From Escherichia coli (lineage in GTDB: Bacteria; Pseudomonadota; Gammaproteobacteria; Enterobacterales; Enterobacteriaceae): a DNA stretch of 64,000 bases. Below, piece by piece: positions 52,808 through 55,955 of this stretch. The notes beneath the pieces were generated by a model. It saw only the letters and a program-made list of their open reading frames with translations, was not told the origin of the DNA and made no database searches. The DNA lies in NCBI RefSeq assembly GCF_003334305.1, contig NZ_QOWS01000001.1. The stretch is one strand, 5' to 3'. The position numbers and the translations under genes are program-made. Each line of letters opens with the position of its first letter. Within the stretch, counting starts at the first letter, position 1.

Positions 52808-54265
52808 ATGACAATAACTCCACAAAACCTGATCGCACTGCTACCGTTGCTGATCGTCGGCTTGACGGTGGTGGTTGTGATGCTCTCCATTGCGTGGCGA
52901 CGCAATCATTTCCTCAACGCTACGCTCTCGGTTATTGGGCTTAACGCGGCGCTGGTTTCGCTCTGGTTTGTCGGCCAGGCGGGCGCTATGGACGTTACGC
53001 CGCTGATGCGCGTTGATGGTTTCGCCATGCTTTACACCGGGCTGGTATTGTTGGCGAGCCTCGCCACCTGTACTTTCGCCTACCCGTGGCTTGAAGGCTA
53101 TAACGACAACAAGGATGAGTTCTACCTGTTGGTGTTAATTGCCGCGCTGGGCGGGATCCTGCTGGCGAATGCCAACCATCTGGCGTCTTTGTTCCTCGGT
53201 ATTGAACTGATCTCTTTGCCGCTGTTTGGCCTGGTCGGTTACGCTTTCCGCCAGAAACGTTCGCTGGAAGCCAGTATCAAATACACCATCCTTTCTGCCG
53301 CAGCGTCTTCTTTCCTGCTGTTTGGTATGGCGCTGGTGTATGCACAGTCTGGCGACCTGTCGTTTGTCGCGCTGGGTAAAAACCTCGGCGACGGTATGCT
53401 CAACGAGCCGCTGTTGCTGGCAGGTTTCGGACTGATGATTGTTGGCCTCGGCTTCAAACTCTCTCTGGTGCCGTTCCACCTGTGGACGCCAGACGTATAC
53501 CAGGGCGCGCCTGCGCCGGTTTCCACTTTCCTGGCGACGGCGAGCAAAATCGCTATCTTCGGTGTGGTGATGCGTCTGTTCCTCTACGCACCGGTGGGTG
53601 ACAGCGAAGCGATTCGGGTAGTGCTGGCGATTATCGCCTTTGCCTCTATCATCTTCGGTAACCTGATGGCGCTGAGCCAGACCAATATCAAACGTCTGCT
53701 CGGTTACTCATCTATCTCTCACCTCGGCTATCTGCTGGTGGCGCTGATTGCGCTGCAAACGGGCGAGATGTCGATGGAAGCGGTAGGAGTTTACCTGGCC
53801 GGTTATCTGTTCAGCAGCCTCGGCGCGTTCGGCGTGGTCAGCCTGATGTCCAGCCCGTACCGTGGCCCGGATGCTGATTCCCTGTTCTCTTACCGCGGTC
53901 TGTTCTGGCATCGCCCGATCCTCGCGGCGGTGATGACGGTGATGATGCTGTCTCTGGCCGGTATTCCGATGACGCTGGGCTTTATTGGTAAGTTCTACGT
54001 GCTGGCGGTCGGTGTCCAGGCACACTTGTGGTGGCTGGTGGGCGCCGTGGTTGTCGGTTCGGCAATCGGCCTTTACTACTACCTGCGCGTGGCGGTGAGC
54101 CTGTACCTGCACGCCCCGGAACAACCGGGTCGCGATGCACCGTCAAACTGGCAGTACAGCGCAGGCGGTATCGTGGTGCTGATCTCTGCACTGTTGGTAC
54201 TGGTGCTGGGTGTATGGCCACAACCGCTGATTAGCATTGTGCGGTTAGCAATGCCGCTGATGTAA
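52808..54265 (+). CDS. nuoN: NADH-quinone oxidoreductase subunit N
   Basis: 485-aa antiporter-like membrane translation. Confidence 0.95.
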
Positions 54266-54289
54266 GCTATCAGTTTGTAAGTCAGAAAG

Positions 54290-54317
54290 CCGCCGACATG
54301 TTCGGCGGTTTTTTTTG
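54290..54317 (+). terminator. Rho-independent terminator of the nuo operon
   Basis: ccgccga-catgt-tcggcgg stem-loop followed by a T8 run. Confidence 0.75.
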
Positions 54318-54331
54318 GTGCCCTGACACCA

Positions 54332-54835
54332 TCACCCAACAATAACCGTCAGCGCATGATTCCCTTGTCGCAGCATACGTCGATACGCGCTAATCAGCTT
54401 TTCCATATCAAGCATGATCGAAGCAAAGAGTTGCCCCTCTAACTCTTCTGAAAAGGTCACTCCCGGATAAATCTCCATTTCATTGAGTCGCTTAATGGAA
54501 AACTGTTTACGCAGCTCACTTCGATCCAGTGATTCCAGTCGGTCGATTGTCGCGGCTAACTCCTGATTCCAGGTCAATCCCAGGAAGCCATCTATGCCAT
54601 CTTCGAGGCTGTGTTCACCAAGCACGGCACGACTCAGCGGATCATTCTTCGCGGGATCAAAAGCAGAGGTGCCTGTCAGCCCAAAGTGTAAAAAATCCCA
54701 GCGTTTATCAATATCCAGTCGGCGTAATCCTGAAAGCGTGTCATGTATATTATCCATCAAAGGTTTTTCAGTAGACTCAAGCAGTTGGTTAATCTTTTCT
54801 GAGTCAATTTCTGCAAAATAACCAATCATTCCCAT
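54332..54835 (-). CDS. yfbM: DUF1877-family protein YfbM
   Basis: 167-aa translation matching YfbM. Confidence 0.8.
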   Translation of the reverse strand: MGMIGYFAEIDSEKINQLLESTEKPLMDNIHDTLSGLRRLDIDKRWDFLHFGLTGTSAFDPAKNDPLSRAVLGEHSLEDGIDGFLGLTWNQELAATIDRLESLDRSELRKQFSIKRLNEMEIYPGVTFSEELEGQLFASIMLDMEKLISAYRRMLRQGNHALTVIVG

Positions 54836-54960
54836 TTATTTTTCCTCCATTGAATTTTATGTTTCGCATCTTAAAACAGACGAGGGAAAATAAAATGTAC
54901 ATGTCGCTGTTTCTGGACCCGCCTCGAGAAATTTTTATTATTTACTGTTGTGTAACAAGG

Positions 54961-55567
54961 TTATAACACCATCTGAGCCATTTTCTGATAATTCAATCTG
55001 TCTGCTGTATCACCGGGCAAGTGGTATTGTTTATTACGATAAAAAGCGGTGTCAGTAATCATTACGGCGGGAATATCGTGTTGCCAATAATTCAGGTGGT
55101 CAGAGAAATCAATACCGGGAATAAACCATGGGGCATTCATAGAATAAACAGATAAATCCCGGGATGATAACAATGCCGTTTTTACCTGACGAACGGCGTT
55201 GATATCCTGTATTCTGCCGACCAGGCAATAAAGTCCCCCCGATCGGGATAAAGCCAGGACATTGCGGGTAAGGGTAATCCTGGCTACCAGGCGCAGAGTC
55301 GTAATAGCCAATCGGGGACGCCCTGCGCGGTAACTCTGGCACCGCTACTGACAAAGAACTCTTTTATATACTCTACGGACCTATTCAGATTATCAATATT
55401 GTCGGCATTACGTGGATGCACAGTTTGTGTAAGATAACGAACTGTTTTTTCTAATTGCTCAGGACTGACGTGTCGGGGCGTTGGCGATAATGCAGTGACC
55501 CAGGGTTGGTAAAAATAATCAGAGGGAGTGAAATCAGAAATAATATAACAAAAGGATTTTTTTTCAT
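54961..55567 (-). pseudogene. yfbL: Remnant of an M28-family peptidase gene (yfbL-like): frameshifted at an A8 run next to the ATG and internally shortened
   Basis: ATG at 55567-55565 is followed by an 8-nt A run and a stop after 38 codons. A different frame is open for about 95 codons (…SFCYIISDFTPSDYFYQPWVTALSPTPRHVSPEQLEKTVRYL…) but has no start. A third frame encodes a 116-aa M28-like C-terminus (…GIDFSDHLNYWQHDIPAVMITDTAFYRNKQYHLPGDTADRL…). Total span is about 600 bp, versus roughly 970 bp for the intact gene as I recall it. Confidence 0.6.
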
Positions 55568-55905
55568 ATATAAATTATCAATAAAAGACGTTATTTTATC
55601 ATTATTTATAATGAGTTATGAGTGTTTGTTTTATTACGGTTGTTAGATCTATACAAAAAGTATCTTTTACAGTGGCTTCGCTATTTTAAAAAGGAATTCA
55701 TATAAGGAAAAATATAATTATGTTATTTATTGGCAGATTGAGTTGACAGGGGGCAGAACTCTGAGGGTAAGAAAAGTCAGCAACAACAATCCACTACATC
55801 AACAGACCAGCAATCGCGTGCCGAGATACGCTGGAAATACCCGAAGATTGAACTGGCGGATGGTGTGACTGACATCAGTCAGTGATGACTTTTTAGCAAA
55901 CTATG

Positions 55906-55939
55906 TTCGACCAGTCAGCATATTTGCTGACTGGTCGAA
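55906..55939. other. Perfect 15-bp stem / 4-nt loop hairpin 17 bp downstream of the elaD stop
   Basis: ttcgaccagtcagca-tatt-tgctgactggtcgaa; likely a convergent or bidirectional terminator. Confidence 0.55.
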
Positions 55940-55955
55940 TTAATTAACTATGATG

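Follow-up and report, generated by a model that had tools for sequence, protein, structure and literature searches.

The yfbL and yfbK genes of this Escherichia coli genome are very probably two adjacent non-functional remnants, fixed in a large E. coli lineage as the result of deletion and then neutral decay. We place the probability of this reading at about 0.93. The window (by which we mean the whole stretch of 64,000 nucleotides analyzed) carries nuoN, yfbM, the yfbL remnant, the yfbK remnant, elaD, rbn, elaA and elaB in that order, and the features discussed are collected in Table 1. Alignments were made with BLAST and MAFFT against K-12 and E1, the latter having an intact yfbL. The intact alleles of K-12, E1 and SF-166, together with three Escherichia outgroup alleles, were used as references at the level of single bases, and population counts were taken over 5426 complete E. 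coli genomes. The sequence of KSC9 (NZ_CP018323) is 100% identical to window positions 54266-57363 over the full length of this 3.1-kb interval.

Table 1. Positions of the features of the nuoN to elaD region in the window, with the evidence for each.
Feature	Position	Strand	Evidence and remarks
nuoN	52808-54265	+	gene order
nuoN-yfbM spacer, compact, with nuoN terminator hairpin; without the K-12 yfbP/O/N island	54266-54331	.	
yfbM, intact, 167 aa	54332-54835	-	ORF; annotated as YfbM family protein in KSC9
yfbL pseudogene (M28 metallopeptidase remnant)	54938-55567	-	alignments, tblastn map; 'frameshifted' in KSC9 PGAP annotation, same span
7-bp deletion near yfbL 3' end (~54973)	54972-54975	-	window, OkiPb01682, 38I23CPO002; not in O157/KY204 remnants
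two 1-bp deletions in yfbL, each frame-shifting	55265 and 55223/55224	-	in all five remnant alleles examined, O157:H7 included
326-bp internal deletion junction in yfbL	55313/55314	-	BLAST, MAFFT; K-12 YfbL residues 88-196 gone
T6 to T5 frameshift in yfbL, coding strand (plus-strand A5)	55511-55515	-	alignment to intact alleles
A8 run (plus-strand T8), directly after ATG at 55565-55567	55557-55564	-	sequence; length polymorphic in population
yfbK remnant, 184 nt (1728 in K-12)	55702-55885	+	BLAST, alignment
inverted repeat (hairpin), 34 nt, near-perfect	55906-55939	.	self-reverse BLAST; conserved in K-12, E1, OkiPb01682
elaD pseudogene	55956-57176	-	W220*; 'internal stop' in KSC9 PGAP annotation

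The yfbL remnant lies where yfbL (b2271, an M28 family metallopeptidase) lies in K-12, between yfbM and yfbK/elaD. It is identified as yfbL by the synteny yfbM-yfbL-yfbK/elaD-rbn and, lesions apart, by its nucleotide identity to the intact gene. Mapping by tblastn shows that residues ~1-87 and 197-312 of K-12 YfbL are retained, distributed over three frames, and the retained parts have 74-88% protein identity with the K-12 protein. Unlike K-12 yfbL, the remnant lacks both a continuous ORF and the metal-binding core, having lost 326 bp and suffered four further frame-breaking indels. An earlier note made from the sequence had concluded that the remnant is too short to hold the M28 core and must contain an internal deletion, and both points are borne out. 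Its list of lesions was incomplete, lacking the two 1-bp deletions and the 7-bp deletion.

The consequence of the 326-bp deletion is clear from the position of the conserved motifs. The Pfam M28 family (PF04389) matches K-12 YfbL over residues 95-317, and of this domain the window keeps only 197-312, split across three frames. The motifs GAHYDS, GADDNASG, SEEPP and LEMIGY all fall inside the deletion, and SDH alone of the five survives. In an alignment with Aeromonas aminopeptidase (chain 3b3t_A, the same 68-187 region as 1AMP) the four deleted motifs correspond to GGHLDS, GADDNASG, AAEEVG and LDMTNY. We take them to contribute four of the five zinc ligands plus the catalytic Glu, as in the known Aeromonas enzyme; this assignment of motifs to ligands draws on the 3b3t_A alignment and on general knowledge of that aminopeptidase. 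No GADDNASG-like or G.DD motif was found in any minus-strand frame of the remnant. On the plus strand a DDN tripeptide was considered as a trace of the motif and rejected as a chance occurrence in an unrelated frame.

The earlier note placed the frameshift of yfbL in the A8 run that follows the ATG. The run is there as described, reading T8 on the plus strand and abutting the ATG of the minus strand, but it is not where the frame is broken. From the ATG the window allele reads MKKNPFVILFLISLPLIIF, an in-frame signal peptide to which those of E1 (MKKITPLCFISLLLSLPLIIF) and SF-166 (MKKINFAFIILFLFSLPLIIF) align colinearly, and the conserved TCA-CTC-CCT codons follow the ATG at a distance of 33 nt, in frame. 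The real break is found ~50 nt downstream of the ATG and A8 run, where the codons ATT-ATT-TTT-TAC containing T6 have become ATTATTTTTAC with T5. T6 is present in K-12, E1, SF-166, two further Escherichia lineages and the O157 and KY204 remnants; T5 is present in the window, OkiPb01682 and 38I23CPO002. There is no T-run at this position in E. albertii. Two open frames are left within the remnant, a tail of 116 codons (54961-55311) for which TTG is the only start codon, and a signal-peptide ORF of 38 codons (55451-55567).

The second remnant has the position and orientation of K-12 yfbK (b2270), which encodes a lipoprotein with a vWA domain. The start codon has changed from ATG to ATA (55702-55704), and the lipoprotein signal sequence terminates at an in-frame TGA (55739-55741). 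A further 4 bp are missing, and ~1.5 kb, with the vWA domain in its entirety, has been removed by two large internal deletions at about 55823/55824 and 55845/55846. What remains corresponds to K-12 YfbK residues 20-40, ~485-491 (IRWKYP) and 565-575 (IELADGVTDISQ*), so that three parts can still be recognized: the QQQQ-rich segment near the N terminus, the IRWKYP segment and the 11 C-terminal residues. The 48-codon frame at 55742-55885 (ending ELADGVTDISQ*) had been suspected to be the orphaned 3' end of a larger gene. It is that, and the gene is yfbK; the frame has no start codon in the window. The accompanying statement that yfbK is absent holds for the full-length gene only. In sum a functional yfbK would need a start codon, a signal peptide of the lipoprotein type and a vWA domain, and these are not found here.

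Some of this is already known. RefSeq/PGAP annotation of the identical sequence over the same span (KSC9 BS635_RS24595; O157:H7-type ARC77_RS31655) flags the yfbL pseudogene, with the label 'hypothetical protein / zinc-binding metallopeptidase family protein, frameshifted' for this haplotype, and as pseudogenes the pair is an ordinary one. The public annotation gives neither the individual lesions nor the yfbK remnant, and both are resolved here. The annotation is thereby tidied, with exact lesions, the orphan frame assigned to yfbK and the site of the frameshift corrected. A full-text literature search for 'yfbL' returned no paper that, by its title or the opening of its abstract, is apparently about the pseudogene.

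How old is this arrangement? The 326-bp core of yfbL is present in 3311 and absent from 2115 of the 5426 genomes, and a 50-mer spanning the exact window junction occurs in 1657; the O157-type alleles have a SNP at the junction base and are missed by this word-based search. The interior of yfbK is present in 2540/5426, and the junction 50-mer of the window yfbK remnant in 1774/5426. The haplotype is old and is carried by 31-39% of complete E. coli genomes, being neither recent nor specific to this strain. Some of its lesions are shared with O157:H7, and the earlier picture of a locus still undergoing decay does not fit these frequencies. The region from the 5' end of yfbL through the yfbL-yfbK intergenic sequence to the 5' end of yfbK (window 55314-55823) is only ~80% identical to K-12, compared with 94-97% for its flanks. 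Two classes of allele are found in this segment, that of K-12, SF-166 and MOD1 and that of the window, E1 and O157, and a third, distinct sequence is present in the divergent Escherichia lineage of L006 (E. coli SCPM-O-B-8794). The yfbK deletion accompanies the window/E1/O157 class, and in E1 the junction of the yfbK remnant lies beside an intact yfbL. The haplotype could also have passed between lineages by recombination.

We aligned five remnant alleles, those of the window, OkiPb01682, 38I23CPO002, 28RC1 and KY204, where 28RC1 is a bovine strain that clusters with records labeled O157:H7. All five have the 326-bp deletion and the pair of 1-bp deletions. The T5 run and the 7-bp deletion are confined to the window, OkiPb01682 and 38I23CPO002. 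The A-run after the ATG is the most labile of the lesion sites. The lesions are nested in these five alleles, and we infer from the nesting that the 326-bp and two 1-bp deletions, shared with O157:H7, are the older ones and the rest younger. Nested lesions and a labile A-run are the pattern expected of a gene that was killed once, long ago, and has been drifting since.

A simple series of events would account for these observations. yfbL would have encoded a secreted zinc peptidase of the M28 family, and would first have been killed by the 326-bp deletion of its metal-binding core, the two 1-bp deletions being equally old or accompanying it. In the sub-lineage of the window one T of the T6 run would then have been lost, with a break of the frame behind the signal peptide, and a further 7 bp would have gone close to the 3' end. 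In the dead gene the A-run following the ATG has slipped among A7, A8 and A9. In yfbK the start codon would have been lost and about 1.5 kb removed by two internal deletions, so that a frame of 47 aa without a start remains. The small indels since inactivation, mostly in homopolymers, would have accumulated under no constraint, with no regulation involved. A functional product of either remnant is not expected on this reconstruction, and a small product of the 116-codon or the 38-codon open frame is conceivable in formal terms.

The explanation offered previously was that a one-base slip to A8 is the inactivating lesion, and that the run acts as a reversible ON/OFF switch of yfbL. The count of the run in related isolates that had been proposed does reveal variation. 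Remnants that are otherwise near-identical have A7 (OkiPb01682 and AMSHJX01), A8 (the window) or A9 (KL53), and the length also varies among alleles that retain the core. Thus two properties of a contingency gene are seen, a mononucleotide repeat in the 5' coding region and a length that varies among isolates, but in the window allele no repeat length generates the full-length functional product required for an ON state, since this yfbL has lost its catalytic core and carries four other indels. Four of the five metal-ligand motifs are gone, three more indels come after the 326-bp deletion, and with A8 the signal peptide is read in frame from the ATG, the frame being lost at the T5 run. The A9 allele of KL53 is instructive, since an A9 run restoring the frame had been listed as evidence that would overturn the decay. 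It does fuse the ATG to the long start-less frame, but a stop is reached 9 codons beyond the deletion junction (AQGVP|DWLLRLCAW*), so the product would be at most ~95 aa without an M28 domain, and still no peptidase. The run-length classes also recur, with an identical 90-mer containing A8 in 865/5426 genomes and a common match of CFT073, EcN and JCM 5491, which suggests inheritance over rapid switching. The switch has very little chance of being correct as an account of this gene, and judged from its sequence ON/OFF switching is excluded for the window allele.

An error of sequencing or assembly, leaving a gene that is really intact, might be feared because the A8 and T5 lesions are in homopolymer runs, which are typical error sites of long reads. 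Yet the 326-bp junction recurs in 1657 independent complete genomes, the T5 and 7-bp lesions are also present in independently sequenced strains, and KSC9, which is identical in the interval compared, is a finished RefSeq genome; the probability of an artefact is almost nil. Co-option of the remnant, through a new function of the 116-aa C-terminal frame, of the 38-aa signal-peptide ORF or of an RNA, would explain why it has remained unpurged and 95-99% identical across its carriers with several short frames open. That level of conservation is, however, no different from the surrounding neutral divergence. Moreover, the later lesions strike these same frames, the 7-bp deletion truncating the tail frame and the T5 and A-run changes altering the 5' ORF, and the tail has only its TTG start. 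An Rfam scan of 54200-57400 at E<=1 gave sub-threshold chance matches only, with no known RNA element. We regard co-option as very improbable, and loss by deletion followed by neutral drift as the very probable explanation of both remnants.

The A-run was also compared among yfbL alleles that retain the core. K-12 and SF-166 have A7 and an ATG that is in frame. CFT073 (L043, 1141-1160) and CREC-591 (L045) have A8, which puts the ATG out of frame; in both, the PGAP annotation starts the gene at a non-canonical ATA. For the Nissle strain EcN and for JCM 5491 the match, 91 nt at 94.5%, equals that of CFT073, and A8 is probable in both. In the cryptic-clade Escherichia sp. MOD1-EC7003 (L005, 9997-10010) the run is A9, the core is kept and the ATG is again out of frame. 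None of these core-retaining A7, A8 and A9 alleles has another frame-breaking lesion within the aligned 5' ~120 nt.

It could be proposed that the run following the ATG is a recurrent slippage hotspot that also turns otherwise intact yfbL genes off, and in the boldest version that yfbL is a genuine homopolymer ON/OFF gene. If true, and taken with the independent nonsense codon of the E. albertii type strain, the lost ATG of DSM 103246 and the independent yfbK deletions, yfbL and yfbK would be a pair subject to parallel, repeated inactivation across the genus; the boldest version would make yfbL one of the rare homopolymer switches of E. coli. There is a likeness to the simple sequence repeat (SSR) contingency loci of Neisseria, Haemophilus and Campylobacter in that a mononucleotide run of isolate-variable length is located right after the start codon. 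In contrast to those loci the yfbL run is short (7-9), no length restores function in the window allele, and the length variants appear to be inherited within lineages. We consider the proposal improbable.

The spacer between nuoN and yfbM requires a different interpretation. In K-12 the interval from the nuoN terminator to the yfbM stop codon contains, in place of 17 bp, a segment of 2561 bp with yfbP, yfbO and yfbN. The three genes are indeed absent from the window, but the proposal that this reflects reduction of the locus is not upheld. The K-12 segment (L002, 1940-4500) has a GC content of 39.8% compared with 52% for the window. The island was found in 1013/5426 genomes (19%), in 985 of them with at least 99% identity, and 27 E. 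coli records have the segment at 60-90% identity. The window spacer has the structure of that of SF-166 and is identical to it across the island insertion site, and it is near-identical to the spacer of the L006 lineage. A deletion of yfbP/O/N from the window is not demonstrable: the 17 bp that the island replaces contain no remnant of these genes, and the spacer is matched by that of strains in which the island never appears. The compact spacer without yfbN/O/P is the majority state and is most simply read as ancestral, making K-12 the atypical strain at this junction. In the cryptic-clade genome L005 a diverged copy of the segment is present, with yfbN adjoining yfbM and 93.5% identical at the amino acid level; given this, ancestral polymorphism at yfbP/O/N is possible. 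The possibility that the whole arrangement is the common ancestral state of the locus, which had been allowed for, is thus realized in part: it is common, but it appears ancestral only with respect to yfbN/O/P.

The elaD gene adjoining the two remnants is also interrupted. The nonsense codon seen previously is confirmed as W220*, a change of TGG to TGA at 56517-56519 upstream of the GGHW and SCGAF motifs. A 50-mer including this TGA occurs in 144/5426 genomes, with isolates from mouse, cow, pig, human and river, and W220* is a lineage allele and not a private mutation. Full-length elaD with premature stop codons has been found in 16.6% of 530 strains, clustered by clade (PMC12575377). The window allele is of the same kind as these. 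elaD is absent from SF-166, E. albertii and two other Escherichia lineages, and was therefore gained in part of E. coli.

Other lesions of yfbL and yfbK were encountered in the genomes used for comparison. SF-166 lacks elaD but has both yfbL and yfbK intact. In the E. albertii type strain NBRC 107761 (L007, 10001-10969) yfbL is full-length except for an in-frame TAG derived from TGG (AMS*LYP), which is an independent inactivation. In DSM 103246 the ATG of yfbL has been lost and yfbK has an internal stop, while CUPF12 has an IS1 insertion in yfbK. SCPM-O-B-8794 (L006, 9470-10010) lacks elaD and carries a separate internal deletion of yfbK; the idea that this deletion and that of the window are one and the same was rejected, as their junctions differ in the alignment and they are independent. 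yfbL and yfbK appear to have been lost repeatedly across the Escherichia genomes sampled. They are apparently dispensable, which is a hint about their uncharacterized function rather than a discovery.

The closest relatives of YfbL found outside Escherichia are 37-48% identical, from Opitutales, Nitrospirae, Thiothrix and Acinetobacter, with no other enterobacterial genus among the relatives returned. This suggests an old horizontal acquisition of yfbL by an ancestor of Escherichia. Lastly, the yfbK remnant and elaD converge, and the hairpin that separates them probably acts as a bidirectional terminator.
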